Source of the DNA: Deltaproteobacteria bacterium
Lineage (GTDB): Bacteria; Desulfobacterota; Binatia; Binatales; Binataceae
Assembly (NCBI GenBank): GCA_021801125.1
Contig: JAJYYI010000017.1
Location: 33,095-97,094, forward strand
Reading direction: 5' to 3'
Length of the DNA: 64,000 bases
Shown piece after piece: positions 1 through 16,730 of this stretch (its first letter is position 1; every line of letters begins with the position of its first letter). The position numbers were made by a program, and so were the translations under genes. The notes under the pieces were generated by a model that worked only from the letters and a program-made list of their open reading frames with translations, made no database searches and was not told the origin of the DNA.

Positions 1-249
1 CCCCAAACGAAGCATCAGGAAGACCGGCGCCGCGACGTAACCGAGGTAGTCGACTACGTTGTCCAGCAGGACACCGTCAAAATAGGCCAATCGTCGATCG
101 ACGCTCAGCGCGCGAGCGGCAAAACCGTCGGTCGAGTCGATCACGGTGGCCAGCGTGAGAGTCATAAACGCCGCACGCGCCCGATAATCAGCGGCGAATA
201 GCAGAGCGGCAAGCCCTAACACGGCGCCGAGAGCAGTGTAGAGATGCAC
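1..249 (-). CDS. CDP-alcohol phosphatidyltransferase family protein; 3' end (C-terminus) lies beyond the window edge. Probable GTG start near 249.
   Basis: Hand translation of the minus strand gives a TM helix (LYTALGAVLGLAALLFAA) followed by DGFAARALSVDRRLAYFDGVLLDNVVD, which fits the D-G-x2-A-R...G-x3-D-x3-D signature of CDP-OH phosphotransferases. The reading frame is open to position 1. It is missing from the ORF track because it has no stop inside the window. Confidence 0.55.
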   Translation of the reverse strand, partial: MHLYTALGAVLGLAALLFAADYRARAAFMTLTLATVIDSTDGFAARALSVDRRLAYFDGVLLDNVVDYLGYVAAPVFLMLRLG

Positions 250-332
250 GCCCCAGCTCGCTAGGCTGCTCCAGTCAATCGGGCCTTGCCGCCGGCAGCT
301 TTTCGCCGGCGCCGCCCCTTGACCTTCGCCGC

Positions 333-866
333 TTAACACCGGCCGCGAACGGAGCGGAAATATTCCTCCAGAGTTGAGACGAAAGGCCCGCAGTTGCGCC
401 GATCTTTCACGAATTTCGTTGCCTCCTCCAGCGAAAGCTTTTGGTGCCAATGGAGGAACGCGATCGCCACCGTCGGAGCGCGGTTGACGCCTGCGTTGCA
501 GTGGAGGTAAATGCGCTCCTTGGCCGCAGCGAGATCGGCTAGAACTTCCAGCGCCTCGCCCAGATGCAACACCACGTCGTCGCTGCTGCCATCGGCGATG
601 GGGGTGCGTACGAACCGGATGCCGTGTTCGCTGTATCCGTGTTGCAGGTCAACTATAGAGAGCCCGTTGACGACAAGGTCCCGGTCGTCTTGCAGGCTGT
701 GCACCGCGCTCACGCGCAACGCCTCTTTGAGCCAGCTGATATCACCTACCTGCGGATATTCGCCGATCAAAAGCTCCGGCAAAAGTTCGGTTACTGAAGG
801 ACGCCTGTCGCCGCGCACGAAACGGGGTTCCGAGTCAGGCCTAAGAGTCCACAAATTTTGCGTCAT
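333..866 (-). CDS. Dual-specificity / protein-tyrosine phosphatase (CX5R P-loop)
   Basis: HCNAGVNRAPT matches the HC(X)5R catalytic loop of DSP/PTP-fold phosphatases. It lies immediately upstream of, and co-directional with, the CDP-alcohol phosphatidyltransferase. Confidence 0.7.
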   Translation of the reverse strand: MTQNLWTLRPDSEPRFVRGDRRPSVTELLPELLIGEYPQVGDISWLKEALRVSAVHSLQDDRDLVVNGLSIVDLQHGYSEHGIRFVRTPIADGSSDDVVLHLGEALEVLADLAAAKERIYLHCNAGVNRAPTVAIAFLHWHQKLSLEEATKFVKDRRNCGPFVSTLEEYFRSVRGRC

Positions 867-1173
867 GAGCGTCTCCGCTCGCGCTCCTTGAAACTAAGCT
901 CGCGGCCAAGCACTTAGGTAAATACCGTCCCGCACGACGCGCAGATCCCGCGAGCAAAGCGCCCGAGGCGCCGCTCCGCCTAACAAGAGTACCAGTTTTG
1001 CCCGCAGCCGGCATCAAACCCACGCCACCCGGCTGAACAGCCGCGCCCACGGCCTCTTTCTGATCCCGTGCGCCCGAACCCGTCTTCTCTGAGCGAGAGT
1101 CAACTTCCGCTTCTCCCCGCGAAGGGCGTAATCCTTATTTCCCCAGGCGAAGGTCGACGCGTGACGAGTGATG

Positions 1174-4100
1174 CTACGACGAATCGCGCGCCGCGGCCGA
1201 CGCAGCCGGTTTCGTAGGCGCGTCATTGACGGATTCAGAATCGATTCCATCCGCGTTCGAGGCCACGGGTTCAGCGTCGGGCGCGGTGTGATTCGTCCCA
1301 CTCGATTCAATCCCGTCGCCATTGCCGGCCGCCACCACGGCTTCGACCCTGCTCGACGCGCGGAAGACGGCACGCGGCGCCGAAGAGCGCTGCGCCAGCC
1401 CCACAACTGCCTGACGCATCACCTCGGCCGCCTTGCGATAAACGCCGTACGACTCGCCATCGCTTGCCGCGCGAACGAGCGCCTCGTTGGTTATAACCGG
1501 ACCGATTCGCAATTCCACTGGGTAACGACGGGGTAGCAACTGCCCCTTGCCAAGAGCGTGATAAGTGCCCTGCACATATATCGGCAGCACATCACACCCG
1601 CTGCGCAGCGCAAGATATCCGGCTCCGCTCTTGAACTCCTGAATCGCGCCGTGCGGCGTGCGCGTACCCTCAGGAAACATCAGGACGCTCGCCCCACGAG
1701 CCAGCTTCTCCAGCGCCGCGTTCAGCGAATCGAGCTGCGCTCCCTCGCGGTCAAACGGAATGAGGGGACTGAAGTTAGCGGCGAGGAACCGTCGCGCGGA
1801 GCTGTTGAAAAAGTAATCCTTCGCCGCGAGCACTACCAGTTGCTCGCCAAGCTTGCCCAACGCGGAGCGAACCAAAACAAAGTCCAGATGGCTTGCGTGA
1901 TTCGCGATCACCAGCACGTTGCGGTTCGCGGGAATATTGCCCCGCCCCAGAACCCGCGGCTTAAGCCATCGGTCGACCGTGCTCTCAATCGCGCCTGCCA
2001 GGATGCTCTGCCCGACGCGGCGCAAGGCTTGCGGCAGGGCCGGCGTGTAGGGCTCGGCGAACGCGGCGTAAGAGGGAAGGCGCGGCCGGCTTGAGTCGCG
2101 AGCGATCAGCCCTTGAAGGTCGCCCGCCGTGCTGATCGCCGTCAGTTGATCCGCGGTTGGAGCCCATCCGCTATGCTGCGCGATTATCTCGGCCAACTCG
2201 GCGAGCGCTAGCGAATCAAGTCCGAGGTCCTCGAACAGACGCGAACCGCTGGAGATCTCGCGCGCGCCTCCGGCAACTTGCTCCAACGCCTCCGCCAGCC
2301 AGCTCGCCAGGTCGGACGTTCCGCCGGCCTCTGCGCCGGCGCTTTTTGCCACCATCGCGCGCAATGTCGAGGCCACTTCAGCGCGTTTAACTTTCCGTGT
2401 CCGTGTGCGCGGAAGCTCACCGCCCGTGAAGCGCAGAATATGCACCTGCTTGTACGGCGGCAGCGCGCGATTTACTTGGTCGAAATGCGCGCGAATCTTT
2501 TCTTCGACGGCGCGCTGGCTCTCGCCATGGGCGTAGGCCGGGACCACCAGCGCTGCGGCCTGCTCGCCCGAACCGACCTTGAGCGCCACGATCGCAAGCT
2601 CCTTGATCTGTGGCAAGCGTCCGTAGAACTCCTCGAGTTCGTCGATGTAGATATTGTTGCCGCCCGCGTCAACGATCACGTCCTTGCTGCGCCCGACGAT
2701 GTACAGCCGCCCGCCGTCGTCGAACCGCCCGAGGTCTCCCGTGTGCAGCCAACCATCCTTGAGCGCCTGCTCGGTGGCGCTTTCGTTGCGGAAGTAGCCT
2801 TTCATCACGTTGCCGCCGCGGACCAGGATCTCTCCGGTCTCCCCGCCTTCGACCGCCTCGAGCTTGACCTCCAGGCCCGACAGCGGTTTCCCGACCGAGC
2901 CCAGCCGCAAATCCTCGTCCGGACGGGCCACGCTCACCACGGGCGCCGCTTCCGTCAACCCGTAGCCTTCGAGCAGTCTGAGGCCAATGTCGTTGAAGAA
3001 CTCGGCGGTCTCGCCCGGCAGCGCAGCACCGCCGCTTACCGCCAGACGCAGGCGCCCGCCGAGGGCCTCGTGCAGCGGGCGAAAGATGAGATTTCCCAGA
3101 TCGAGCCTCAGGTCCCGCTCCAGCGAGTGATTGAGCGTCCGCAGGCGCTCAAACGCCCCCTTGAACACCGTCCCGCGCCGCTCAATCTGCTCGAGGATTC
3201 GGCGGTGGATGGCCTGCCATATCGCGGGCACGCCTATCAGGGCCGTCGGCTTGACATCCGCCAGCGTTCGGCCGAGCGTTGCGGCACTCACGTTGCGCGG
3301 GTACACGATGTGCGCGCCGCTGGCCAGCGGCAGCAACATGCCGCACGTGAATTCGAAACAATGATGCAGCGGCAGCAGGGAGAGCACCGTGTCGGTCGGA
3401 TCGAGTTCGAAGATTCGCGAGAGCATCAGCACTTCGGCCGTAAAGTTGCCGTGCGTGAGCATCGCGCCTTTGGCCGAGCCGGTGGTGCCCGAAGTGAACA
3501 CCACCGAAGCGAGCGTGTCCTTGCTCCATTCGACCTTCGCCGGCGTTTTGCCGTGCAAGACAAACGGCCGGCGCAAATCCTCGAACGCCATCTCAACCAG
3601 CGCCGTGCCGCACGCCTCAGCCATCGGGCCCAACCGCTGCCGAAAACTGGCTGAACACAGCGCGGCTGTCGGCGAGGCGACGCGGCAGATAGCGCGCAAC
3701 TCGTCCGTCGAAAGCATGGGGTCCAGCGGCACCGCCACCGCTCCCGCACCGATCACCGCGAAGAAGCCCAACACCCAATCAGGAGAGTTCTCTCCCGCCA
3801 GTAATACCCGATCGCCTGTTTGAACGCCGCGGCTGGAAAGCATCAAGCTCGCGCGGCGCGCCGCGTCTCGCAGCTCCCGGTAGCTGAGCGTCGAGTGATG
3901 GCCTGAAGAATGACGCCAGCTTAGCGCCGGCTTCGCGCCGTGGCGCTCGGCGCTTTCATCCAACAGGTCGATGAGATGCCTGAACCTGAGCGGCTTCGCC
4001 CGCACGCGCCCTCGCGTGTGCAAATCCAAGCGCGGAAAAATGTGGCGGCGCAACCCTGGGATGTGGATGTTAACCCAGTAGTCGTGCCAATCCATCTTGT

Positions 4101-5622
4101 CAGGATCGAAGCGATGGACCTCGGCGTCAGCCGGACTTAACCGCTTATATAAAGCGCGAATGTTGCGGCTGTGGAAAATATAGGAGAAGTCCTGGATGTA
4201 CGGGCGATAAATATCAATGAGCGACTGCCCCAGACGAATGCGATCACTGGTTTGCGCCGCCCATCGCTCCAAGCGCCTTACCGCCGGCGCATCGCGCCCC
4301 ATCAGCAGCTGTCCCGCGCGGGCGGTCTGCGCCAACGCCCTGGGCAGCCCCCAGATCGCCGCCTCGTAGGTTTTATGGGAAACGGCGATGGGCTCCAGGT
4401 GCTGTGTGAGCAACTTTCCGGCGGTCTCACCATGCTCGCGCTGATGGCGCCGGTTGGCCACGGCGGTAAGCTCGATCAAGCGCTCCATGCGGAACGGGTT
4501 GGAGTCCGAAGAGCCGAGCTGGTAAATCGGTTCGTGACGACCCAGCAGCAGCGCAGCCAGAACGGGAAACATGGCGTGCGCCACGAGGTCCACCGGAATG
4601 ACGTCCAATATCAGCTCGCGGCGCGCGGGATAAAAGCGGTATCCCTCGCCCGACAGGTAGGTGAGCGGCGCGCTGGTGTTGACCCCTTGGTTCCATCCAG
4701 GGAAGGGATCTCTTATCGCGCTCTCGATTACCGCCGGGCGCACCACCGTCACTTTGAGCGTGTCGCGCGCGGCCAATACCAACTGCTCGCCCAAACTCTT
4801 GCTGTAGCTGTACGTATTGGGCCATCCCCAGTAAAGCGCGCGGCTGCGCCCTTCGCGCTTGAGTTCCTCCTCGAGCTGTTGCTTGGGCAACAGTTCTGCG
4901 CCGTCGCGCGCTTCGTCAAGGGCGGCGCCGTTTTCATCCTCGGGTTCCCTTGCGGCGCTCGACTCGATGCGCGATATCACCGCCTGGGCTTCGCGAATTT
5001 CGCGCTTCAGGCTGAAACGGCGCGCGCCCGGCTGCGGGCACCAATCCACCGGGATGTCGTCCTCATGCCGGTGGCCGTCGGCCGCGCCGGCAACGTAACA
5101 GGTCGAAATATGGAGCATCGGCGCACGTATTTTGCGGCAAAAGTCGAGCACATTGCCCGCCCCCAGCGTGTTAATCGCCAACGCCTTGTTAAGCGGCGCG
5201 TCGAAGTTCACCAATCCCGCGCAGTTAACGACCGCGTCTATCTGACCGCGCGTGAAGCGCGTCTGAGAATCAGTGACAAGGCCAGGCTCCGTGATGTCGC
5301 CGCATACGACGGTCAGCTTCTCCCGTACCCACCGGTCGAACGAGTCTCCCATCTGCTCGCGCAACGGGGCAAACGCGGGCGAGGCGAGCACCTCGCGCTC
5401 CAGCCGCTTGGGCCCCGAGCGCTGATCGCCGCGAACCAGCAGATAGACCTGTTCGACCTCGGGATGCTCGCGAAGAAGCAGATATAGAAAGACCTTACCG
5501 AGAAAGCCGGTAGCCCCGGTAAGCATGATGCGCCGTCCGCGGAAGATCTTTTCCAGCGGTGGAAGGCGGTCTCGTTGAGTTTTTCGTTGACCGACGCGCA
5601 ACAAATTATTGGACATCCGCAA
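1174..5622 (-). CDS. Multidomain lipid-biosynthesis enzyme resembling ElbD. Domains: N-terminal NAD(P)-binding fatty-acyl reductase (approx nt 5535-4065), acyl-AMP/CoA ligase (approx nt 3960-2385), phosphopantetheine carrier (approx nt 2325-2115), C-terminal PlsC-type acyltransferase (approx nt 2025-1425).
   Basis: TGATGFLGK Rossmann motif with the male-sterility/NAD_binding_4 region. AMP-binding core (FTSGTTGSAKGAMLTHGN ... GYGLTE ... HTGDLG). PP-binding LGLDSLALAEL (DSL serine). AGPAT motifs NHASHLD and FPEGTR. The frame is a continuous 1482-aa ORF. Confidence 0.85.
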   Translation of the reverse strand: MRMSNNLLRVGQRKTQRDRLPPLEKIFRGRRIMLTGATGFLGKVFLYLLLREHPEVEQVYLLVRGDQRSGPKRLEREVLASPAFAPLREQMGDSFDRWVREKLTVVCGDITEPGLVTDSQTRFTRGQIDAVVNCAGLVNFDAPLNKALAINTLGAGNVLDFCRKIRAPMLHISTCYVAGAADGHRHEDDIPVDWCPQPGARRFSLKREIREAQAVISRIESSAAREPEDENGAALDEARDGAELLPKQQLEEELKREGRSRALYWGWPNTYSYSKSLGEQLVLAARDTLKVTVVRPAVIESAIRDPFPGWNQGVNTSAPLTYLSGEGYRFYPARRELILDVIPVDLVAHAMFPVLAALLLGRHEPIYQLGSSDSNPFRMERLIELTAVANRRHQREHGETAGKLLTQHLEPIAVSHKTYEAAIWGLPRALAQTARAGQLLMGRDAPAVRRLERWAAQTSDRIRLGQSLIDIYRPYIQDFSYIFHSRNIRALYKRLSPADAEVHRFDPDKMDWHDYWVNIHIPGLRRHIFPRLDLHTRGRVRAKPLRFRHLIDLLDESAERHGAKPALSWRHSSGHHSTLSYRELRDAARRASLMLSSRGVQTGDRVLLAGENSPDWVLGFFAVIGAGAVAVPLDPMLSTDELRAICRVASPTAALCSASFRQRLGPMAEACGTALVEMAFEDLRRPFVLHGKTPAKVEWSKDTLASVVFTSGTTGSAKGAMLTHGNFTAEVLMLSRIFELDPTDTVLSLLPLHHCFEFTCGMLLPLASGAHIVYPRNVSAATLGRTLADVKPTALIGVPAIWQAIHRRILEQIERRGTVFKGAFERLRTLNHSLERDLRLDLGNLIFRPLHEALGGRLRLAVSGGAALPGETAEFFNDIGLRLLEGYGLTEAAPVVSVARPDEDLRLGSVGKPLSGLEVKLEAVEGGETGEILVRGGNVMKGYFRNESATEQALKDGWLHTGDLGRFDDGGRLYIVGRSKDVIVDAGGNNIYIDELEEFYGRLPQIKELAIVALKVGSGEQAAALVVPAYAHGESQRAVEEKIRAHFDQVNRALPPYKQVHILRFTGGELPRTRTRKVKRAEVASTLRAMVAKSAGAEAGGTSDLASWLAEALEQVAGGAREISSGSRLFEDLGLDSLALAELAEIIAQHSGWAPTADQLTAISTAGDLQGLIARDSSRPRLPSYAAFAEPYTPALPQALRRVGQSILAGAIESTVDRWLKPRVLGRGNIPANRNVLVIANHASHLDFVLVRSALGKLGEQLVVLAAKDYFFNSSARRFLAANFSPLIPFDREGAQLDSLNAALEKLARGASVLMFPEGTRTPHGAIQEFKSGAGYLALRSGCDVLPIYVQGTYHALGKGQLLPRRYPVELRIGPVITNEALVRAASDGESYGVYRKAAEVMRQAVVGLAQRSSAPRAVFRASSRVEAVVAAGNGDGIESSGTNHTAPDAEPVASNADGIDSESVNDAPTKPAASAAARDSS

Positions 5623-7267
5623 CCACCAGCGGTGGCAGGTGCAGGTAGGTGATGGTCGCCGAGCGTCCGATGTCGCCGGTGGCCATCGCGATAGCCTCTT
5701 CGACCGTGTCCGCCGCTTCCCAGCCTAGCCTCGCGGCGACCTGAGGATCTTCGCAACCAGCCGCGATCACGCGCCCCAGATGCTTGCGGCCGGGCTCGCC
5801 CCAGTACCACATGTAAAACGGATGCACGCCGTGGTACGCGTGACCGTACCGATACATATGAATGTACGTAGGATTGGCCGCAAACTCAGCTTCAAAGCGC
5901 TTGGACAGCTCCTCGGAGTCCGTGGTCTCTGCCAGGCATCGATGAAAGAACTCGATGTAGCTCGGATGATGCTCCGGGTGAAATTCGTTGCGCAGCGGGT
6001 GACATATGATCATCGTTCCGCCCGGGCGGACCAGAGGTTTGTACCGGTACATGTTGAACAGGTAGCCAAGCCCGGTACACTGCACCAGCACCGGATTCAT
6101 TACCGAATTGACGTTGTAAGGACAGACATACGGGACGCCGACGAGCAGAACGTCGGACTGTCCGCTGACCGGCACTGCGTATTGCTGGAACACGCGGTCT
6201 AGAGTTTTGCGATGCACGGCCTCGGTTTCTCCGGCCCATACGCCGGTCAACTCGTACGGCGCGGAGTAATGGTGCAACAGTTCGCGGCGCGTCCGATTAG
6301 ACATGTTCGCCAGCGTCCAGTTGAAGGCGCGAAGCCGCATGCGGTCCCATTCGTTGAACTCGTCTTCGTTCTTCTGCAGGAAGTCGAAGAAGCCCGAGTA
6401 CATGCGATTGTTGATCGACGTCTCAACCGTGAAGATGTTGAGCTCGCGACTGACGACCTTTCCAAGCCTGTCGACCGTGCTGTGAAGCGCCGAGCGATTC
6501 GGATCCATGTAAGAATGACATCCGCGCAGCGTGGCCGGATTATGGTGGTAACGCAAACTCTGATACGGCGCGAGGCCTACCGCCACCGACTTGTGCCCGC
6601 CATCCATCGGCACCAATGTCAAATTGACGTAGATCACCAGGTCGGAGTCGGCGGCGCGCTTTGAGAGCCACACTTCCTCGCCGTGCTCGGTCTTGCCGAG
6701 CATCGCGAGGTCGCCCGGGTTCTCGCCGTCGAAATTGTATAAGCGGTCGGGCCAGAACTGGGCAAAGGCGCGCTCGCCCACGGCGCGGCGAATCTCCGCG
6801 GCGGTCATGCGGCGATGCAGCGAGGTCGCTATGATGATGTGCACGTCGTCGACGCCGTAGTCCGCCAGCGTCTGCAGCACGATGTTGAGCACGCGCTCAC
6901 GCGCGTCGGGCCGCTGCATCGGCGGCAGCGGCAAGCTGATATCGTCGACGGCGATCGTCACCCGCATGTTCGGGTTAAGCTGCGCGAACAGCGGGTCGGC
7001 GTTCTCGGGGTGAAGCAGCGCGTAACGGATCGCGACCTCGGGATCGGGCAGCCCGTCCATCGGCGGCGGCGGATAAACGACGCGCGTGCCAGGCGGCAGC
7101 TTTTCTTCGAGGAATTCGTCGCCGTAAGCGATCAGGCGAGGCTTGGAGCGGCGCGTAAGAGTCACCACGAGATCACTGCGCGCGCCGATCTCATGAAGTA
7201 GTTCGGCCCGTTTGAGTTCCCTGAGTTTCGCTTCCGGAGCTGCCATTCGTCTGGCCACCGCGTACAC
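5606..7267 (-). CDS. LarA-family protein (lactate-racemase-like, putative nickel-pincer-nucleotide-dependent 2-hydroxyacid racemase/epimerase homologue), 553 aa
   Basis: An ATSLHRR motif (AT[GS]xHR) is followed 75 residues later by GGHKS. A His-His pair sits 15-16 residues after that Lys (KSVAVGLAPYQSLRYHH). This matches the His108/Lys184/His200 spacing of L. plantarum LarA as I recall it. The gene overlaps the ElbD-like gene start by 17 nt, which suggests translational coupling. Confidence 0.6.
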   Translation of the reverse strand: MYAVARRMAAPEAKLRELKRAELLHEIGARSDLVVTLTRRSKPRLIAYGDEFLEEKLPPGTRVVYPPPPMDGLPDPEVAIRYALLHPENADPLFAQLNPNMRVTIAVDDISLPLPPMQRPDARERVLNIVLQTLADYGVDDVHIIIATSLHRRMTAAEIRRAVGERAFAQFWPDRLYNFDGENPGDLAMLGKTEHGEEVWLSKRAADSDLVIYVNLTLVPMDGGHKSVAVGLAPYQSLRYHHNPATLRGCHSYMDPNRSALHSTVDRLGKVVSRELNIFTVETSINNRMYSGFFDFLQKNEDEFNEWDRMRLRAFNWTLANMSNRTRRELLHHYSAPYELTGVWAGETEAVHRKTLDRVFQQYAVPVSGQSDVLLVGVPYVCPYNVNSVMNPVLVQCTGLGYLFNMYRYKPLVRPGGTMIICHPLRNEFHPEHHPSYIEFFHRCLAETTDSEELSKRFEAEFAANPTYIHMYRYGHAYHGVHPFYMWYWGEPGRKHLGRVIAAGCEDPQVAARLGWEAADTVEEAIAMATGDIGRSATITYLHLPPLVVADVQ

Positions 7268-7584
7268 CCGTCAACTTCGCGCATGCGCCGCGCGCGCATC
7301 CGCAACCTTGGCCCAACGACCTATTAGCGAAGGTAGACCGCGCTCGCCGCCAGGCGCCTTGAGGCGTTCCCGCCGCTGTCCCAATAGTGCGCCACTCGCC
7401 TGACGCACTCGCCGCGCCTGAACCGAGCGAGAACGCGCGCTACCGAGCCCGCAATGCGGGGCTCGACGTTATTAGCTTCCCGCGGCCAAAAGTCCATATT
7501 CAGGTTCGCTCGCTCCCCGCACCGCCTCAGGCAAAGCCGGTGGTCAGAACAAGCGGAGCAAACCGACGCGAACGGCCTTGCGCT

Positions 7585-8349
7585 TCATACTCCGACCAAG
7601 TGGCGCGCGAACGACGTCGCCCCGCGCAACCGGCCGTCGCCCGCAAACCGTATCACGGGCCAATGCCGGGAGTGGGCGAAAGCTTCAAGCGCGTCGTCCG
7701 GATTGACCGCGACCGGATGGCCAACCGCGCACAGAAACGGAACATCGTAATACGAGTCGGCGTAACCCCAACAAGCGCTCAGGTCCAACCCGCGGCGAGC
7801 CGCATAGTCAGCGCACCACGCCGCCTTCTCGCTTCCCGCCATCACGGGCTCTTGCAACGCCCCGGTGGCCACGCCTTGGCGAAATACCAACCGGTTGGCG
7901 GCAAAGTCGGTCACGCCAAGCCGTCGCGCCAAAGGAGCAACCATAAAGTCCGGCGAACCGGTTACGAGCACTGGTTCGAGCCCAACCTCGCGGTTGCGTT
8001 CCAACAAATCAAGGGCTTGCGGGTAAAGCCGGCTCGTCATGACGTAGTCGCAATACTCCTCGCCGACTATCGCCAGGCGGTCGCGCGAAACACCCTTGAA
8101 AGTCTCGAAAATTGCCCGGTTCAGCAAGGCCCGATCGCTTCTCTCAGCCACGTACAAAACCGGCAAACGCCGGACCAAGCGCGCGAGATAGCTCACACGC
8201 CGGTTCCATTCACGCAACTTGCTGAAAACGAAAATCCCCGCGTCGACGAGATTTAGCTCCGCCAGCGTGCCGTCAAGATCGTAGAAAGCCACTCGTGGAC
8301 GAGCGGAATTTTTCGCAGGCCGACTCATCGCGTAGAATAGAACTGACAC
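7585..8349 (-). CDS. HAD-superfamily hydrolase, subfamily IB (phosphoserine-phosphatase-like). Alternative ATG start at 8328.
   Basis: FYDLDGTL motif I (DxDGT), a conserved downstream Lys, and an Asp motif (GDGxxD-like ... GYADSYYD) are present. It is the first gene of the apparent operon HAD / LarA-like / ElbD-like. Confidence 0.6.
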   Translation of the reverse strand: MSVLFYAMSRPAKNSARPRVAFYDLDGTLAELNLVDAGIFVFSKLREWNRRVSYLARLVRRLPVLYVAERSDRALLNRAIFETFKGVSRDRLAIVGEEYCDYVMTSRLYPQALDLLERNREVGLEPVLVTGSPDFMVAPLARRLGVTDFAANRLVFRQGVATGALQEPVMAGSEKAAWCADYAARRGLDLSACWGYADSYYDVPFLCAVGHPVAVNPDDALEAFAHSRHWPVIRFAGDGRLRGATSFARHLVGV

Positions 8350-8508
8350 GTCAGTCTAGTGAGCCGCTGGGCCGCGGTCAACGCCGAAACGGAGTGGTCA
8401 ACCGCGATGCGACGCGTGCCGCTTTCGCCTACGGTTGCGGCGTTTTCGGCGCTGGGCGATCGACGGCCGCAAATGCGTCCCACCAACGGCATTTCGCAAC
8501 AATTGTGA

Positions 8509-9135
8509 TCAGTGCGGCCGGTTATCGTGGTTGGTCTCGCCCGCGCGCAGCAACTCCGCAGTGGCGACGCCATTTAGTCCGAAGTTCAAGATTTCTTCGG
8601 CCAGATGGCTAATTTCGCGCTGCGGTTGCCGAAGGGTTTGCCCCGCCACCTCCTTGATGCCGCCGAGGATGCAGGCCGCAACCACTCGCGTGTCGCAGGA
8701 CCTAACCAATTTCATCTCCAACCCGAGATCGAGCGAGCGCTGGATCTGCTGGGTTATCTGACCGTAGAACTCGCGTATTCTTCCTTCGAACTCACGGTCG
8801 AGGTCGAGCGAATGGTTAAGCAGGATGTCGGTAAGCTCCCTCTCGGTGAGGACAAAGTCGAGTATTCGCAGGAGGTTGTTGCGCAGTTGCTCGGCAGCGG
8901 AAGGCTCGCCGGGGGCCATCCTGATGCGGTAGATGCGCTTCTCGATCTCCAACAACGCCTCGTTGAGCAGTTCCTCGAAAAGCTCTTTCTTGTTCTGGAA
9001 ATAAAGGTAAAACGTGCCGCGCGCGATCTTCGCTTGGGCCACTATGTCCGAGATGTTGGTGCGATGGTAACCCTTGCGCGCGAATAGTTTTTTGGCGTGG
9101 CGAAGAACTTGTGCGCGTCTGACCTGCCGTTCCAT
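8509..9135 (-). CDS. TetR/AcrR-family transcriptional regulator
   Basis: N-terminal HTH: AKKLFARKGYHRTNISDIVAQAKIARGTFYLYFQNKKELF is typical of TetR_N. Confidence 0.8.
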   Translation of the reverse strand: MERQVRRAQVLRHAKKLFARKGYHRTNISDIVAQAKIARGTFYLYFQNKKELFEELLNEALLEIEKRIYRIRMAPGEPSAAEQLRNNLLRILDFVLTERELTDILLNHSLDLDREFEGRIREFYGQITQQIQRSLDLGLEMKLVRSCDTRVVAACILGGIKEVAGQTLRQPQREISHLAEEILNFGLNGVATAELLRAGETNHDNRPH

Positions 9136-9328
9136 TGCTCAGGAGTATGCCGGTTCGAGTATAGCGCCTAAATACAAGCGTGTCATCGCAAGCGAGCGAA
9201 CCGACCGCCAGCGACATTTTGGCGGGTCAAGTTTCAGTGGGCAAGGGCATCGGCACCAAGCGGCTGATCAATCGAGCAGCGCGCGAGCAGAGCGCGCTGC
9301 CGAGCAGAACGCGCTGCCTCGACGAAGC

Positions 9329-10213
9329 TTATTCCATTTGCACCTCGGCGACTCCGTCTCGGATAACCCCCTGGCCCTGTGGGTTGGCGGTCTCGTAGAA
9401 GTAGGTGCGCCGCGAACGATCCCGCGCGCCGGGCCAGAGTGTTGTGGTCAGCGTCTGGCCCGGAAAAACCGGGCGCGCAAAACGCGCGTACAGGCGCTTA
9501 AGTCGCAATGGGTCTCTGCCGCACACTGCGTCAATCACCGCCTTTGACGCAAACGCCATCGTGCACAGTCCATGCACGATCACGCCGGGCAGTCCCGCCG
9601 CTTTGGCGGATTCCTGGCTGAGATGAATCGGATTGTTGTCGCCGGACGCTTTCGCGTAGCGCACCGCTTGATCAAAATCGAGTTGTTGGACGACCGTCGC
9701 CGCCTGTTCAGCGCGCAGCGCCTCGACAGCGAGCGCTTTTCGCGCTTCGCGCTTCTCGCGCGAAACCGCGGAGCGAGCGCGCGCCTTGTTCCGCGCGCGG
9801 ATGAACGCCGTGAAAACTATTCGCTGCACCTCGACGCGATCCTGATTAGAAGCGCGCAACTCAACGGCAAGCGTCTCGCCGTGAGCCATGACCTCAATCC
9901 GCATTATCCTGGCCACAGTGGAAATCACGTCATCCGGCCGGATCGGCGCCAGGTACTCCATGTCCTGTTCGCTGTGTAGAAGGCGGACGAGATCTACGCC
10001 GAGTTCGGGATCGCTGGCTACTTGGAGCACCGCCGGATAAGTAGCCACGGCGCCGAAAAGCGGCGGGGCACTAATCCCGCCCGCGCGCGAGACGTCCAGA
10101 AAAGCCGGGTTATCTTCGTTGCAGGCCGAGGCATATTCCGTAATCGCACCTTCGCTTACCCGGAATGTAGTCGTCGGATAAACCTTGCCGATACAGTTTT
10201 GGTTAAGCCCCAT
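9329..10213 (-). CDS. Double hot-dog MaoC-like (R)-specific enoyl-CoA hydratase/dehydratase. The start is taken at the internal ATG at 10213, which has a GGAG Shine-Dalgarno; the ORF track extends it to 10357.
   Basis: The C-terminal half carries the MaoC signature (GDNNPIHLSQESAKAAGLPGVIVHG). The N-terminal half is a second hot-dog fold. Confidence 0.7.
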   Translation of the reverse strand: MGLNQNCIGKVYPTTTFRVSEGAITEYASACNEDNPAFLDVSRAGGISAPPLFGAVATYPAVLQVASDPELGVDLVRLLHSEQDMEYLAPIRPDDVISTVARIMRIEVMAHGETLAVELRASNQDRVEVQRIVFTAFIRARNKARARSAVSREKREARKALAVEALRAEQAATVVQQLDFDQAVRYAKASGDNNPIHLSQESAKAAGLPGVIVHGLCTMAFASKAVIDAVCGRDPLRLKRLYARFARPVFPGQTLTTTLWPGARDRSRRTYFYETANPQGQGVIRDGVAEVQME

Positions 10214-10473
10214 TGCGTGCGTTTCGCTCCTTACACCGCACCGTAAAAAGTCGAGCCGACCGGCAAAGGGAATCAAGCGAGCGTATGCGAAGCCCTTGCC
10301 GAGATTCTGAACAATCCCGCTTACCAGCCCCGCCGAACAACGATACAAGCGGGGCAATGCTCATCGCGACCCAACCACTCTGGCATCCCGACTATGTTCG
10401 GCTCTTTAATCGTTCGGCTTCATGCAACACACAGCTAAAGGCATCTTTCATTCGAGCCTTGCACGCACTGCGC

Positions 10474-11625
10474 TCAAGCCACTTCCCGTCCCCCGATGAA
10501 AACAGCCTTTAGGTTGAGATCTCGATCGAGCACGAGCAGGTCCGCGCGCGCGCCCACGGCGATCGTTCCTTGTTGGCTAAGCCGCATAAGGCGCGCCGGA
10601 TTTTCCGCCGCCATGGCGACCGCCTGAGACAGACTTGCGCCGGTGACTTGAATCATCAGGCGCACCGCGTCGAGCAACGAGGTGAAGCTGCCAGCCAGGA
10701 CGCCGCTGTCGCACCGCGCGGCGCCTTCTCGCGCGCCCATCCCGCGCATTCTTTCGAACCCGCCCATCGCATCGGCGCCCGACGCCGTAAGCCGCTCTTT
10801 GCCGCTATCGCTCGGCGTCGCCACGCGGTCGCTGGTCAGTATCAGCCCTTGGTGGCCACGCGCGCGAAAGGCCAGCCGAAGCATCGCCGGATGCACGTGC
10901 GCGCCGTCCGCAATCAGTGCGGCAAGAGCCGCCGACGGCAACAGACCCGCCACGGCGACGCCGGGCGCGCGATGGTGAATAGGGCGCATCGCGTTGAACA
11001 GATGGGTGAACATGCGCGCACCCGCCGAAACGGCCTCCATCGCCTCTTCCAGCGTGGCGTCTGAATGGCCGATCGCGCTCACCACACCGCGCGCTGCAAG
11101 CCTGTTGATCGCCTCCCGCGCACCCGCCAGCTCGGCGGCCAGCGTCACCATGCGCAACTGTTCCATTGCAAGCACACGCTCAAGCGCCTCGCCTCGAGGC
11201 TCCAGATTAAAGCGCGGATGGATCCCCAATCGGGCGGGTGAAATAAAGGGTCCTTCCAGGTGCAAGCCGACAATCGCCGCCTGTGCCGCCTCGTGCTCGA
11301 GCATAACCGCGGCTTGGCACACCGCGTCATGCACCCGCTCCAGGCGGTCAAGCGGCGCCGTAATCGCCGTCGGCAAAAAGGCCGTGACGCCCTCAGCCGC
11401 CAAGGAGCGCGCGATTGCGGCGATTTCGCCGGGCGAAGCCGCCATCACGTCGTGAGAACCCACGCCGTTCACTTGCAGGTCGATTAGGCCTGGGACAATC
11501 TGATCATCGCCTGCTGGCAGCGCCGGCTCGACCGCTTCGATCCGTTCCGAGAAAGTCACCCTGCCCGAGAGACTCAGACCGTCGGCACAGACAAGCTGGC
11601 CACGCAACGTCCTAGTCTCCAGCAT
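10474..11625 (-). CDS. nagA: N-acetylglucosamine-6-phosphate deacetylase
   Basis: Amidohydrolase fold with GLIDLQVNG and HLEGPFISP motifs characteristic of NagA. Confidence 0.8.
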   Translation of the reverse strand: MLETRTLRGQLVCADGLSLSGRVTFSERIEAVEPALPAGDDQIVPGLIDLQVNGVGSHDVMAASPGEIAAIARSLAAEGVTAFLPTAITAPLDRLERVHDAVCQAAVMLEHEAAQAAIVGLHLEGPFISPARLGIHPRFNLEPRGEALERVLAMEQLRMVTLAAELAGAREAINRLAARGVVSAIGHSDATLEEAMEAVSAGARMFTHLFNAMRPIHHRAPGVAVAGLLPSAALAALIADGAHVHPAMLRLAFRARGHQGLILTSDRVATPSDSGKERLTASGADAMGGFERMRGMGAREGAARCDSGVLAGSFTSLLDAVRLMIQVTGASLSQAVAMAAENPARLMRLSQQGTIAVGARADLLVLDRDLNLKAVFIGGREVA

Positions 11626-11638
11626 CGCTGTTCAAAGC

Positions 11639-11893
11639 TTAGTTGGCACCGAAGCGCTCCGCCAACAGGCGGGAAAAGCGCGGCGTGTATATCAGGTCGA
11701 AAACGGCCTCTTTGTCCGGAAACATCGCCAGCACCGCGCGCTTCAGCGCCAGCACATGCGCCCAAGCCTCGTCCAGCGTAATGCGGGGGTCTTGCGCGAT
11801 CACCGCAGTCGTCAGGTCAACCAGCAGATGCATCCGGCGGATCATGCGTTCTTCCAAAGCTAATTCGGCGTCGCGACCATGGTCGCCCATTGC
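11639..11893 (-). CDS. Hypothetical small protein (~84 aa). The longer track ORF has an Arg/Pro-rich, probably non-coding N-terminus.
   Basis: Only the C-terminal 84 codons read like a protein (MGDHGRDAELALEERMIRRMHLL...). No recognisable family. Confidence 0.3.
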   Translation of the reverse strand, partial: AMGDHGRDAELALEERMIRRMHLLVDLTTAVIAQDPRITLDEAWAHVLALKRAVLAMFPDKEAVFDLIYTPRFSRLLAERFGAN

Positions 11894-12122
11894 ACTTTTA
11901 CCTCGTGGTTGCGATTGTTGATGCGAGACAACTATAGCATCGCGGACGCCATGTTTTTTAAAGGGCTGCGCGCACGGCGCCCCGAAACAGAAGAAGCGCA
12001 AACGAAAGAATTCCGCTGCGACTTCCGAAAGGAAGTTCGCTGCTGGCCGTCGCCGACGGCGCAACGAAGGCGCAGCCTGACCGCTTCGACGCGAACGCTC
12101 CGGCAAGAGGTTCATAGCCGAG

Positions 12123-13031
12123 ATGATCCCGCAGCAACAGCCACGCCTTAAGAGCAGCTTTATTTACCTCGCGAACGCGGTGCGCGACCTTACCAGCAAT
12201 TGGGAAACCTTCGCGTTGACCCTTACACCGCTGGCTTTGGTGGCGGCGCTCTGCTTGATGCCGGACGCGCTCAATCTGCAGCACGAGTTGATGCGTTTCT
12301 TTTCGTCAGGCGTGCATAACGTGGGCGTGCGCGAGGTTCAACTGATTAAGGAAGGCCCGCAAGCGAATTTGCCGTTCTCGCCGTGGCAAACGCGGCTTTT
12401 GCACCTAATCATTCTTCTTCTCACGCTGGGCGTGAACCTGGTCGTCTTGTGCGCATTAAGCCGGATTCGTGCGGGGGTTCGCGAAAATAACCCATTAGGC
12501 GAGGCGCGGGCCGTTTACCGGCGAGCCTGGAAGTTAATAGGTCCCTTCTCGTGGGTTTTTCTATTGCAAGTGTTGACTGTCATCGTTGGGCTTGTTCTGC
12601 TCGTGATACCCGGGGCGTTGGCCTATATCTGGCTCTACTTCGCTCAGTACGCCGTGGTGATGGACAATCAGCGCAGCTGGCCGGCGCTCTTATTCAGCCG
12701 CGAGCTTATGCGTGGGCGTTTCTTCGCGGTTGCGATGCGCATCGTGGTTTTTCTCGCCGTATGGTCCGGATTCAATTCATGGACTGGCGGCGCATTTGTA
12801 CTGGTAAGCTGGACGCTCGGCATCATCGGCGCAGTGACCGGCTTTCTGTGGGCAGGCATCTTCGCGGCCGACCTGTTGGCGACCTGCGTCGGCTACGCGA
12901 CGATCGCATTTTTCTTTGCCGCGGGCGCGCGCTTGTACGAAGACCTAAACCAGCTTCGAAGGGCGCGCCAAGAGCTTGCACCAGCGCCGTCGCTGGCGCC
13001 AACTGAAGCGTTAGGCGCCCGCCCCTCTTAG
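12123..13031 (+). CDS. Polytopic integral membrane protein of unknown function
   Basis: At least six hydrophobic helices (e.g. LTLTPLALVAALCLMP, LLHLIILLLTLGVNLVVLCAL, VFLLQVLTVIVGLVLLVIPGALAYIWLYF). No diagnostic motif. Confidence 0.5.
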   Translation: MIPQQQPRLKSSFIYLANAVRDLTSNWETFALTLTPLALVAALCLMPDALNLQHELMRFFSSGVHNVGVREVQLIKEGPQANLPFSPWQTRLLHLIILLLTLGVNLVVLCALSRIRAGVRENNPLGEARAVYRRAWKLIGPFSWVFLLQVLTVIVGLVLLVIPGALAYIWLYFAQYAVVMDNQRSWPALLFSRELMRGRFFAVAMRIVVFLAVWSGFNSWTGGAFVLVSWTLGIIGAVTGFLWAGIFAADLLATCVGYATIAFFFAAGARLYEDLNQLRRARQELAPAPSLAPTEALGARPS

Positions 13032-13426
13032 CCATAGCTTCGGGCCGATAGCCGTCGTTTCCGCCGCCAGCGTCGAGCGGGCCCGAGCGCAATTACCAGT
13101 GTTCAAGCGCTAACTATAGCCTATTTGAAGCCGCAGGTATGCTACAGCGCCTCCGCTCGGGGCGGCCCCAGGCACGCCAAGGATTTGCATATTGATTTCG
13201 AAGAGCTTAATTGATGTGATTTTGCTTCTAGAAACCTTTTTAGCGCTAAAATCCCACTGTCCTTTCAGCCTTCCGCTCTGCCCAGCTAAGGGGCGCTGGT
13301 ATTGTCCGGCCATGCTATGCCATAATGGAGGTGCTGCTTCTATCTCAGCGGGCGCAAGAGAGGGGCGGATTCACCCCCAAAGCTCCCGGCTAACCCAGCG
13401 CGTGCGATCTTATGGCAAGGTGCGGT

Positions 13427-13918
13427 ATGACCCCCAGCTTCAAAAAGGGTGAGAAGGTTGTCTACCCGGCCCACGGCGTGGGTGTGATCGAAGGCGTTCA
13501 AACCAGAACCATCTCGGGCACCGAACGGACGTACTATTTGCTCAGGATCTTGGACAACCACATGACCATAATGGTTCCGACCGAAAACGTCGGAGCGGTC
13601 GGGCTGCGCCGGGTAATCGGCAAGGACATGGTTACCAAGATCTATCGTATCTTGCGGGACCGCAAGGTCCAGGCGGACGGTCAGACCTGGAATCGGCGGT
13701 ATCGGGAATACACGGAAAAAATCAAAACCGGCTCACCCCTCGAGATCGCCCAGGTGCTGCGCGACCTGTTGGTGCTCAAGGCAGACAAAGACCTGTCTTT
13801 CGGAGAGCGCAAGATTCTGGACACAGCGCGCAACCTGCTAGTCAAAGAGCTTTCCATCGCGCAAGACCATCCGGAAGAAAAGATCATAGAAGAACTCAAC
13901 GTTCTTTTCGCGAACTAG
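13427..13918 (+). CDS. cdnL: CarD/CdnL-family RNA-polymerase-binding transcription factor
   Basis: N-terminal CarD_CdnL_TRCF domain (FKKGEKVVYPAHGVGVIEGV ...). Length is ~160 aa, as for CdnL. Confidence 0.85.
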   Translation: MTPSFKKGEKVVYPAHGVGVIEGVQTRTISGTERTYYLLRILDNHMTIMVPTENVGAVGLRRVIGKDMVTKIYRILRDRKVQADGQTWNRRYREYTEKIKTGSPLEIAQVLRDLLVLKADKDLSFGERKILDTARNLLVKELSIAQDHPEEKIIEELNVLFAN

Positions 13919-14097
13919 GGCAGTGCACGCCCGCGTCCGCCATTCTATGACCCCAGGCGCCGACCAGCGGCAAGCATGCTCTAGCGCTCGCTCGCTTTCC
14001 GCACGATCCTGTAGCCCCCGCGTGGGTCGCGAGCGGACGTTCCTTCGACCGACGCGCGCGCATGCCACCCCGAAGGTTGCCGTCCTGGCCTGATTTC

Positions 14098-14814
14098 ATG
14101 GCCGCGAACGGTTGCGCGATTCGGGCTTCGGTCATTATCGTTGCCGCCGGCGTCGGCTCGCGGCTCGGCCACGCTACGGCCAAAGCGTTCGTCGATCTGT
14201 GCGGACATCCGATGTTGTACTATTCGCTTGCCGCTGTCGCGCGCGTGCCGGGAGTAATCGAGGTTGTCGTCGCCGTGCCGGCGGGAATGCAGGCCGCGGC
14301 ACGCGGTGCAGTGCGGGATGCGGGGCTTGAGCTGCCAGTTAAGATTACGCCTGGAGGACACGAGCGGCAGGAATCGGTGGGCATCGCACTGGAGATCACC
14401 AGCGCTGAAAGTGACTTGGTCGCGGTTCATGACGCAGCCAGGCCCTTTGCGCCGCCCCAGTTATTCGCTGACTTGCTCGCCTGCGCGTTCCGCTACGGCG
14501 CCGCCGTCGCCGCAGTGCCCGTTGCGGATACGCTCAAGCGCGCCGAAGCCGGCGTGGTCTCCGGCACGCTGCCCCGTCAAGGACTGTTTCAATCCCAGAC
14601 ACCGCAGGCATTTCGCCGCACGCTGTTAATCAACGCTTTTAAGGCCGCGCAAGAAAAGGGATGGCACGTCACCGACGACGCCGAACTCGTCGAGCGGGCC
14701 GGTGGCAAAGTCCGCCTGGTAGATAGCTCGCGCGAAAATTTCAAGGTAACGACGCCCGAGGACTTGATGATGGCGGAAATGCTAATTGCCGCGCGCCGGC
14801 GCTCCGCCATCTAA
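14098..14814 (+). CDS. ispD: 2-C-methyl-D-erythritol 4-phosphate cytidylyltransferase
   Basis: VIIVAAGVGSRLG nucleotidyltransferase P-loop. VHDAARPF motif. Confidence 0.85.
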   Translation: MAANGCAIRASVIIVAAGVGSRLGHATAKAFVDLCGHPMLYYSLAAVARVPGVIEVVVAVPAGMQAAARGAVRDAGLELPVKITPGGHERQESVGIALEITSAESDLVAVHDAARPFAPPQLFADLLACAFRYGAAVAAVPVADTLKRAEAGVVSGTLPRQGLFQSQTPQAFRRTLLINAFKAAQEKGWHVTDDAELVERAGGKVRLVDSSRENFKVTTPEDLMMAEMLIAARRRSAI

Positions 14815-14816
14815 GC

Positions 14817-15641
14817 TCACGACGCGAGCGGCGATGCGAGCCCTTCGTTGAGCGAGCCCGACCTGAAGCCCTTTAGGTCGAGCGCCACAAAGCGAAACCC
14901 GATTCGGCGAAATTCCCGGAAGACGAGGTCCGCGAGTTCCGGCTCGATTATCCTCCCCATCTCATCGCGTTCAAGCTCAAGGCGGGCAACGTCGTCGTGG
15001 TAGCGTACGCGGGCCACCTTGAAGCCCAGGCACCGCAAAAGCCGCTCGCCCTCTTCAACCTTTGCAAGCGCTTCGGCCGTAATCTTGGTGCCGTAGGGAA
15101 AACGGGAGGATAGACACGGCGAAGCCGGCCTGTCCCACGTCGGAAGCGCCAGCGAGCGCGAGAGCTCGCGAATCTCCGCTTTCCTCAAACCCGCCTCGAC
15201 CAGCGGGTGGCGCACGCGGCGTTGCTCGGCGGCCCTGATCCCAGGCCGGTAGTCCCCAAGGTCATCAAGGTTGAGGCCGTCCAAGATATGCTCGACGCCA
15301 AGCTGGCGCGCTCTCTCCTCGCAAATCGTGTAAAGGTTGCTCTTACATAGATAGCATCGGTTGGTCGGGTTCGCGGCGTAACCGGGTATGACCAGCTCGT
15401 TAGACTCAACCAGCATATGGCGCGCTCCGATCAGCGCCACCAGCGCGCGAGCGGACTCCAGGTCCTCCCGCGGCATCGTCGGCGAGGTCGTCGTCAGCGC
15501 CAGGACGTTGTCGCCCAGGACTTGATGGGTCACCTTGAGCAGGAAGGAGGAATCGACGCCGCCCGAAAACGCGACGATCGCAGATTTCATCGGCTCAAGC
15601 AGACTGCGCAAACGGTTCAGTTTCTCGACAAGCTCGCTCAT
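14817..15641 (-). CDS. larE: LarE-family ATP-dependent sulfur insertase (PP-loop ATP pyrophosphatase, TIGR00268-like), probably the multi-Cys (Fe-S) type. Start at the ATG with a GGAGAGG Shine-Dalgarno.
   Basis: SGGVDSS PP-loop. PASPCLSSRFPYG matches the LarE catalytic-Cys region. An additional CYLCKSNLYTIC cysteine cluster is present. Confidence 0.7.
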   Translation of the reverse strand: MSELVEKLNRLRSLLEPMKSAIVAFSGGVDSSFLLKVTHQVLGDNVLALTTTSPTMPREDLESARALVALIGARHMLVESNELVIPGYAANPTNRCYLCKSNLYTICEERARQLGVEHILDGLNLDDLGDYRPGIRAAEQRRVRHPLVEAGLRKAEIRELSRSLALPTWDRPASPCLSSRFPYGTKITAEALAKVEEGERLLRCLGFKVARVRYHDDVARLELERDEMGRIIEPELADLVFREFRRIGFRFVALDLKGFRSGSLNEGLASPLAS

Positions 15642-15785
15642 AGCAGGACCTCTCCGGTCCAGGCTTGACACATCCGTCAACACTTTCGCAAGCCCTCGCC
15701 TCGCGTGCCAAAGGCACAGAGCGACGCGCTAGGAAGGAACCGGACCCGACGGGCCGCACGCGAAGCAGGGCCACTTGCGCGGGCA

Positions 15786-16730
15786 CTAGATCCCATCGAG
15801 TTGAAACAGGTCGGTCGTCAAATAGCGATCGCCCGAGTCGCAGAACACGGTTGCAACGACTTTGCCCGGACCGAGCCGGCGGGCGATCTCGAGCGACGCC
15901 CAGCAGTTGGCACCGGCGGAGATCCCGACGAGGAGGCCTTCCGTGCGCGCCAAGCCGCGCGCGCATTCAGCTGCGTCCTCGTCGCTAACCTCAATGATCT
16001 CATCATAAATCTTCGTATCCAGAATTTCGGGCACGAAGCCAGCCCCGATACCTTGTATTTTATGGAAACCGGGCTCGCCGCCGGCCAACACGGGCGAATT
16101 CTTGGGCTCAACGGCCACGATCAACACCTGGTCTTTGAGCTCGCGCCGAAGAAAATTGCCCACTCCGGTGATCGTGCCACCCGTGCCCACACCGGCCACA
16201 AAGGCGTCGATTTGCTGCAATTGTGCGAGTAGCTCCGGCCCCGTGGTCTCGAAATGAATCCGCGGGTTGGCGGGATTCGAGAACTGCTGCGGCATGAAAT
16301 AGTCAGGGTTCTCCCGCACCAATTCCAAGGCTTTGGCGATCGCGGCGTGCATCCCGCGCGTATCAGGCGTGAGCACCACCTCCGCCCCGTACCCGGCCAA
16401 TAGCGAACGCCGCTCCTCGCTCATCGTGTCCGGCATGGTCAGGATGAGGCGATAGCCCTTGACCGCGGCAATCATGGCCAGGCCAATTCCGGTATTCCCT
16501 GAGGTCGGTTCAACGATCGTTCCGCCTGGCTTTAGCCGCCCGTCGCGCTCGGCCTGTTCGATCATCGCCAGACAGATGCGATCCTTGACGCTACCGCCAG
16601 GATTGAACATCTCGAGCTTCGCCCATATTTGCGCATAGCCATCCGGCACCAGTCGGCGCAAGCGAACCACCGGTGTGCTTCCTATAAAGTCGGTTGGCGA
16701 ATGTCCTACATCGACCGGCACGGTCTGCAT
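15786..16730 (-). CDS. cysK: Cysteine synthase (O-acetylserine sulfhydrylase)
   Basis: PLP-enzyme motifs KLEMFNPGGSVKDR and GTGGTITG. Confidence 0.85.
   Translation of the reverse strand: MQTVPVDVGHSPTDFIGSTPVVRLRRLVPDGYAQIWAKLEMFNPGGSVKDRICLAMIEQAERDGRLKPGGTIVEPTSGNTGIGLAMIAAVKGYRLILTMPDTMSEERRSLLAGYGAEVVLTPDTRGMHAAIAKALELVRENPDYFMPQQFSNPANPRIHFETTGPELLAQLQQIDAFVAGVGTGGTITGVGNFLRRELKDQVLIVAVEPKNSPVLAGGEPGFHKIQGIGAGFVPEILDTKIYDEIIEVSDEDAAECARGLARTEGLLVGISAGANCWASLEIARRLGPGKVVATVFCDSGDRYLTTDLFQLDGI

Follow-up and report, generated by a model that had tools for sequence, protein, structure and literature searches.

The closest described relative of the protein considered here is ElbD of Myxococcus xanthus (MXAN_1528, UniProt Q1DC43, MIBiG BGC0000871), in which an N-terminal FAR1-like reductase is followed by an acyl-CoA synthetase (ACS), an acyl carrier protein (ACP) and an AGPAT-like acyltransferase (PMC9131029; the same domain list is given in PMC9426513). 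Its gene belongs to an operon running elbA (NAD epimerase), elbB (HAD), elbC (unknown function), elbD and elbE (NAD epimerase) (PMC9131029; locus tags in PMC13012113). Disruption of elbD in M. xanthus strongly lowers both alkyl and vinyl ether lipids, and i15:0 aldehyde disappears in the mutants; the ACS and ACP activities of the enzyme have been shown in vitro, and the vinyl ether is made by CarF, not by ElbD (PMC9131029). Here we analyzed an elbD homologue from a 64,000-nucleotide stretch of a Binatia chromosome (Deltaproteobacteria bacterium, GenBank assembly GCA_021801125.1, contig JAJYYI010000017.1, positions 33,095 to 97,094), hereafter the window, where it occupies 1174..5616 of the minus strand and encodes a FAR-ACS-ACP-acyltransferase protein of 1480 amino acids (aa). 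Sequence comparison supports its placement as a canonical ElbD-family multifunctional enzyme, a member of a known family and not a new kind of enzyme. The elbB-elbC-elbD core cluster to which it belongs most likely serves the synthesis of 1-O-alkyl (ether) glycerolipids, a role proposed on the strength of the M. xanthus genetics.

Two further groups of described systems bear comparison. FAR-GNPAT fusions (M. xanthus MXAN_1675; Tetrahymena FARAT) likewise carry a reductase and a glycerolipid acyltransferase on one chain for ether lipids, but they lack a ligase and a carrier and rely on the flavoenzyme AGPS, which was not seen near elbD in the window. The elb-like clusters found in sponge symbionts (Poribacteria, Acidobacteriota) and the homologues in Acidobacteria subdivision 4 share with the Binatia locus a conserved core of elbD and elbB, and phospholipid genes, including CDP-alcohol phosphatidyltransferases, adjoin it in some clades; they come from other phyla, however, and some split elbD between the reductase and ligase domains. 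The available portions of the reports on these clusters make no mention of elbC, lactate racemase or DUF2088.

Domain architecture and family of the ElbD homologue

With the orthologue P0392 of Myxococcus stipitatus as a proxy for M. xanthus ElbD, BLASTP aligned the window protein from residue 18 to 1404, with 38% identity and 55% positives over 1448 residues. The reductase and ligase modules were 42% and 41% identical, the acyltransferase 48% and the carrier 30%. The P0392 locus itself reads Epimerase-HAD-Lar_N-ElbD-Epimerase, as in the published elbA-E operon. The window protein shares with M. xanthus ElbD the four activities in identical order, collinearity over the 1448 residues, all catalytic motifs and the lack of a predicted membrane span, and in both loci elbD is directly preceded on its strand by elbB (HAD) and elbC (Lar_N). 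An earlier sequence-only reading had proposed a resemblance to ElbD and asked for a direct comparison of domain order; the published order proved to be the same reductase-adenylation-carrier-acyltransferase (R-A-T-AT) series, and the resemblance holds along the protein and in the elbB and elbC genes upstream. The differences are that the window protein comes from Binatota and has an extra low-complexity tail of 70 aa, and that the Binatia locus lacks elbA and elbE and has instead a TetR gene upstream and a DSP-fold phosphatase and a Pcs-like gene downstream.

Domains were called with Pfam profiles at their curated cut-offs, residues were numbered from the translation of the open reading frame (ORF), and motif conservation was scored across 63 full-length family members. 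All six Pfam domains exceeded their cut-offs, in the order FAR-Sterile-AMP-PP-AT, confirming the fusion of reductase, ligase, carrier and acyltransferase in one ORF that the sequence-only reading had described; the motifs it quoted are all found in the translation (TGATGFLGK 33-41, LGLDSLA 1131-1137, NHASHLD 1239-1245 and FPEGTR 1314-1319). The reductase begins with an NAD_binding_4 domain (residues 32-349, 4570..5523, minus strand; 178 bits), whose motifs GATGFLG (34-40) and YSYSK (269-273) are kept in 55-58 of the 63 members, and continues into a Sterile domain, the FAR C-terminal domain (residues 464-527, 4036..4227, minus strand; PF03015, 40.5 bits against a cut-off of 35.4). Residues 24-527 match the entire PDB entry 7eoz, 'Fatty acyl-CoA reductase' (E = 2.5e-52), for which a literature search turned up no paper.

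The acyl-AMP/CoA ligase (2392..3963, minus strand) is made up of AMP-binding (residues 552-942; 281 bits, E = 2e-83) and AMP-binding_C (993-1075) domains and carries the core motifs TSGTTGSAKG (708-717), GYGLTE (884-889), TGD (959-961) and GRSKD (975-979) and the A10 lysine, Lys1075. This middle part of the protein matches many acyl/aryl-CoA ligases of solved structure. A fatty acyl-AMP ligase (FAAL) type was considered and rejected, as there is no large insertion: 391 residues cover the 384 positions of the AMP-binding model. The carrier (PP-binding, residues 1106-1167, 2116..2301, minus strand; PF00550, 29.4 bits against 20.8) has its phosphopantetheine attachment site at Ser1135 (codon 2212-2214) within GLDSL (1132-1136), a serine kept in 60/63 members. 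The PlsC/LPLAT-type acyltransferase (residues 1221-1348, 1573..1956, minus strand; PF01553, 79 bits) matches PDB 5kym, Thermotoga PlsC (E = 2e-17), and its motifs NHASHLD, FPEGTR and VLPI (1343-1346) are almost invariant in the family (62-63/63). Catalytic residues are thus intact in all four modules (GxxGxxG/YxxxK, A3/A5/A7/A8/A10, the DSL serine and NHxxxxD/FPEGTR). A motif scan of the translation found no hydrophobic stretch resembling a membrane span. The whole protein reached no NCBIfam model, its best matches, all far under the cut-offs, being models of CoA ligases for long-chain fatty acids, Aas-type models and carboxylic acid reductase models; this is why it bears public names such as 'AMP-binding protein' or 'long-chain acyl-CoA synthetase'.

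In the ORF listing a single minus-strand frame spans 1174..5622, with 1482 codons from TTG 5622 and a stop codon at 1174-1176. The gene likely starts at ATG 5616 (1480 aa), which overlaps the elbC stop (TAA) by 11 nucleotides (nt). We preferred this start because it matches the JGI call (1480 aa), whereas the identical protein in NCBI begins at Met31 (1450 aa; 5526..5616 of the minus strand lost) and would drop residues 18-30, which can be aligned to Myxococcus ElbD, together with part of the first Rossmann strand. At the other end, about 70 residues (~1410-1480; 1177..1389, minus strand) form a low-complexity, non-conserved tail, as judged from the loss of alignment and low identity: homologue alignments end at about residue 1404-1435, and identity within the tail is 5-13%.

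The sequence-only reading had also called such enzymes rare and taxonomically restricted, which is wrong. An exhaustive search of representative proteins with residues 281-1480 as the query, in which all Binatia proteins collapse into one cluster at 50% identity, returned about 60 further 50% clusters of full-length ElbD-like proteins of 1300-1700 aa (29-44% identity), spread over several phyla and grouping into about 16 clusters at 40% identity, besides many relatives of 850-930 aa without the reductase domain. Named members come from Myxococcota, Planctomycetota, Gemmatimonadota and Fervidibacterota, and the literature adds homologues in Acidobacteriota, Poribacteria and Latescibacterota, among others. 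As far as these sequences go, the ElbD architecture is uncommon, but neither rare nor narrowly restricted.

The elb cluster in Binatia

To place the gene in context we took as related loci the best 80 in a species-representative genome collection, almost all of them metagenome-assembled genomes (MAGs) named Candidatus Binataceae, Binatus, Binatia or 'Deltaproteobacteria'; Binataceae fall within Candidatus Binatota. tblastn showed the elbD ORF unbroken in these 80, with amino-acid identities of 56-82%. Presence of the neighbouring genes was counted over the Binatia loci with enough flanking sequence (eligible loci).

Upstream of elbD in the window, and on the same minus strand, lie an elbC homologue of the LarA family (Lar_N; 5606..7246, with a likely start at ATG 7246 in an ORF that extends to GTG 7267), the stop of which overlaps the elbD start, an elbB homologue encoding a HAD-IB family phosphatase (7585..8349; PF12710 104 bits, TIGR01490 112 bits against a cut-off of 98) and a TetR-family regulator directly upstream of the cluster (8509..9135; TetR_N and TetR_C_24). 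Relative to M. stipitatus, the ElbB homologue is 36% identical and the ElbC homologue 52% identical over 539 aa, with gene order and orientation kept. Both the ElbC-like and the ElbB-like gene were found upstream of elbD on the same strand in all Binatia loci counted (71/71 each), as was the TetR regulator in 68 of 68 eligible loci, and synteny breaks directly upstream of TetR. ElbC is the best-conserved product of the cluster, with a median identity of 77% compared with 58% for ElbD.

Beyond Binatia, eight sampled loci carried elbA-B-C-D-E (four), B-C-D-E (one), B-C-D (one) or elbD alone (two, one of them from Planctomycetota), so that the HAD-Lar_N-ElbD unit is kept in 6/8. The B-C-D locus belongs to a Myxococcota MAG that holds the closest non-Binatia relative and, like the Binatia loci, is without elbA and elbE.

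Downstream of elbD, again on the minus strand, are a DSP-fold phosphatase with an HCNAGVNR P-loop (333..866; PF00782, 61 bits) and the 5' part of a Pcs-like CDP-alcohol phosphatidyltransferase that runs off the window (1..339), called from its reading frame and from an orthologue in locus L002; its GTG start at 339 overlaps the phosphatase stop (GTGTTAA). The full-length orthologue (L002:15549-16499) matches PF01066 and the Pcs NCBIfam models, the latter at no more than 188 bits and under their cut-offs. The phosphatase was found downstream of elbD in 54 of 64 eligible Binatia loci and the Pcs-like gene in 51 of 61; the pair occurs at some 85% of the Binatia loci and might act on the product's head group.

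Some variation surrounds this arrangement. The elbB-elbC spacer (7247..7584) measures 338 nt in the window and about 340 nt in Binatia, compared with 19 nt in Myxococcus, and holds a GC-rich hairpin (CGAGCCC...GGGCTCG, ~7440-7465). An Rfam scan of window positions 1-16000 and a promoter/terminator scan gave nothing above background, the spacer included. Some Binatia loci have an extra gene between elbD and the phosphatase, absent from the window, for which the example in locus L004 (14353..15234, plus strand) gave weak zinc-dependent phospholipase C / S1-P1 nuclease domain matches. A MaoC/HadAB-like double hot-dog dehydratase next to TetR (9329..10357, minus strand) occurs in 0/80 loci and is specific to this genome.

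Otherwise the window consists of ordinary chromosome, with genes for ATP synthase, ispD, carD, cobyrinate amidases, nagA, ftsH, tilS, dnaJ, dnaX, recR and ccm genes; a mobile-element or secondary-metabolite-island setting was rejected, the neighbours of elbD being housekeeping genes. Elsewhere in the window we observed a protein of 663 aa bearing a domain of the thaumatin family, uncommon in bacteria (29590..31581, minus strand), and a protein of 858 aa in which a zinc ribbon, a Ser/Thr kinase and an adenylate/guanylate cyclase are joined with a SPOR domain (36165..38741, plus strand).

A candidate ether-lipid route and competing explanations

Judging by its intact core motifs, the ligase would adenylate a long-chain fatty acid and load it as a thioester on the in-cis carrier at Ser1135. 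From there the acyl group may partition between two fates, reduction by the N-terminal FAR1-type reductase with NAD(P)H, which would convert it to a fatty aldehyde or alcohol, and transfer by the C-terminal PlsC-type acyltransferase, which would pass it from the carrier to an acceptor of the glycerol-phosphate or dihydroxyacetone phosphate (DHAP) type. Formation of the ether would need partner proteins, and we propose that the co-translated ElbC (LarA family) and ElbB (HAD phosphatase) help to link the alkyl chain to glycerol. Head-group addition or processing may then, in Binatia, fall to the DSP-fold phosphatase and the Pcs-like CDP-alcohol transferase encoded downstream. By inference only, this pair would recall the eukaryotic pathway in which alkyl-acyl-glycerol-3-P is handled first by a phosphohydrolase and then by a CDP-alcohol phosphotransferase.

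Several observations weigh against an ether-lipid role. The reductase and acyltransferase activities of M. xanthus ElbD were undetectable in vitro and its ether-forming chemistry has never been demonstrated there (PMC9131029). In the same organism, mutants with polar elbB insertions were partly restored by elbD on its own, which argues that ElbB and ElbC are not strictly essential there, and inactivation of elbE lowered ether lipids (PMC9131029), yet no elbE lies near elbD in Binatia: tblastn of the 64-kb window, and of sequence up to 10 kb away in 80 Binatia loci, found no homologue of elbA or elbE, genes that may lie elsewhere in the genome. The window holds no AGPS or CarF homologue either and, since CarF is absent from it, only an alkyl ether product can be argued for within the window. 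Pontiella carries elbD homologues and no ether lipids were detected in it (PMC11868695). Identity to myxobacterial ElbD is only 38%, papers on Binatota make no mention of ether lipids, and we found no paper joining Binatia or Binatota with ElbD or ether lipids.

The absence of AGPS, ElbE and CarF nearby, the want of an in vitro demonstration of ether formation and the case of Pontiella would also suit an enzyme of fatty-acid salvage or neutral-lipid metabolism, in which an Aas-like unit of ligase, carrier and acyltransferase re-acylates lysophospholipids and the fused reductase only feeds fatty alcohols or aldehydes to wax esters or other sinks, perhaps tied to the alkane metabolism reported for Binatota. 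Models of the Aas type ('acyl-[ACP]--phospholipid O-acyltransferase') were indeed matched, at 214 bits by the whole protein and 58 bits by the acyltransferase alone, both far below the cut-offs, and Escherichia coli Aas resembles the window protein in fusing a PlsC-type acyltransferase to an AMP-binding ligase, with free fatty acids activated and moved to glycerolipid. However, Aas is membrane bound, has the order acyltransferase-ligase and lacks both a reductase and a carrier of its own, whereas the order here is ligase-carrier-acyltransferase and the Aas family score is not reached (PRK08633, 214 bits against a cut-off of 1221). A salvage role is also at odds with the full-length collinearity with ElbD, with the conserved elbB-elbC-elbD synteny and with the M. 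xanthus genetics that link the same architecture to alkyl ether lipids, and it leaves the tight coupling to a LarA-family enzyme unexplained. We consider it unlikely.

Far less probable still is a carboxylic acid reductase or nonribosomal peptide synthetase (NRPS)-like enzyme releasing an aldehyde that goes into a specialised metabolite. The protein does have adenylation, carrier and reductase domains, as do the single-chain carboxylic acid reductases with their phosphopantetheine carrier and NAD(P)H reductase, and the antiSMASH class would be 'NRPS-like'; the corresponding models were matched weakly (TIGR01746, 93 bits against a cut-off of 213; carboxylic acid reductase model NF041592, 162 bits against 1300). 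Carboxylic acid reductases, however, run adenylation-carrier-reductase (A-T-R), end in a thioester reductase and have no acyltransferase, whereas the chain here carries a FAR1-type reductase with a Sterile domain at its N-terminus and a fused PlsC acyltransferase at its C-terminus. This domain order largely refutes the idea. The sequence-only reading had named two points on which its assignment could fail, domains below their HMM thresholds and a closest homologue that is an ordinary carboxylic acid reductase; every domain passes, and the protein does not have the A-T-R layout of such a reductase. Nor are there other biosynthetic genes nearby, the neighbours being lipid/phosphatase and housekeeping genes. 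A chance long ORF or a mis-assembled gene fusion might be suspected in a window of 62% G+C, in which spurious antisense ORFs of 458 and 438 aa lie over elbD on the plus strand, and given the split elbD of Poribacteria and Acidobacteria. Such an artefact has a negligible chance of being the explanation, and we take it as refuted by Pfam E-values down to 2e-83, by the same single ORF in 80 independent assemblies, closed chromosomes included, and by the roughly 60 protein clusters at 50% identity. Alkyl ether glycerolipid synthesis thus remains the role that we favour for the cluster.

ElbC and the place of Binatia among candidate ether-lipid producers

The ElbC-like protein exceeds the cut-off of NCBIfam NF052592, 'NPN-dependent hydroxyacid isomerase, LarAH14/15/16 family' (820 bits against 740), and among solved structures it is closest to the single-histidine LarA-like enzymes 9q2u and 9q3j. 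Residues were assigned by alignment to Isosphaera LarA (9eia), with residue roles taken from PMC12611868. The ElbC homologue keeps the ribose-binding Asp109, the catalytic His151, the cofactor-tethering Lys226 and the Ni-binding His242, lacks the EPHL segment that carries the second catalytic histidine and has Leu in place of the substrate-carboxylate Arg, a pattern of cofactor and catalytic residues that holds in 73-74 of 74 ElbC-like sequences, Myxococcota included. On these residues the protein is probably dependent on the nickel-pincer nucleotide. The window also encodes LarE, the ATP-dependent sacrificial sulfur transferase of nickel-pincer cofactor synthesis (14817..15683, minus strand; TIGR00268, 324 bits against a cut-off of 150), 7.5 kb from elbC and outside the conserved cluster; larB and larC were not seen in the window. 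Papers on LarA make no mention of lipids, and we found none linking ElbC or ether lipids to LarA, nickel-pincer or DUF2088.

These features led us to a tentative idea, to which we give a small chance of being right, that ElbC is the missing catalyst of an AGPS-independent bacterial ether-lipid route and acts through a hidden redox step. To exchange the acyl group for a fatty alcohol, AGPS needs the ketone of DHAP. ElbC might transiently oxidise the C2 hydroxyl of 1-acyl-glycerol-3-phosphate to a ketone, which would permit the same exchange, after which the hydride would go back to the same face. If true, this would explain why this LarA group is without the second catalytic histidine and the carboxylate-binding arginine, the inactivity of LarAH14 from Frankia on the hydroxyacids tested, and why the Binatia core cluster manages without an ElbE-type reductase. 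Appealing as it is, a hidden-redox role of ElbC in forming the ether is speculative; the connection between ElbC and LarA is the higher-value lead, and one that is not specific to this window.

What is new here is an ElbD-family member in Binatia with a trimmed, strongly conserved cluster; the family itself was already known. Peat, palsa and soil MAGs are the source of many of the related loci, and with these loci the Binatia, a widespread uncultured soil and peat phylum, join the candidate bacterial ether-lipid producers. This bears on the search for the soil bacteria behind ether-bound membrane lipids, in which ElbD homologues serve as markers. As a stripped-down and strongly conserved version of the elb locus, the Binatia cluster TetR-elbB-elbC-elbD hints at the partners that ElbD really needs, and ElbC, as a probable nickel-pincer enzyme of the LarA family, could make the ether-forming step testable.

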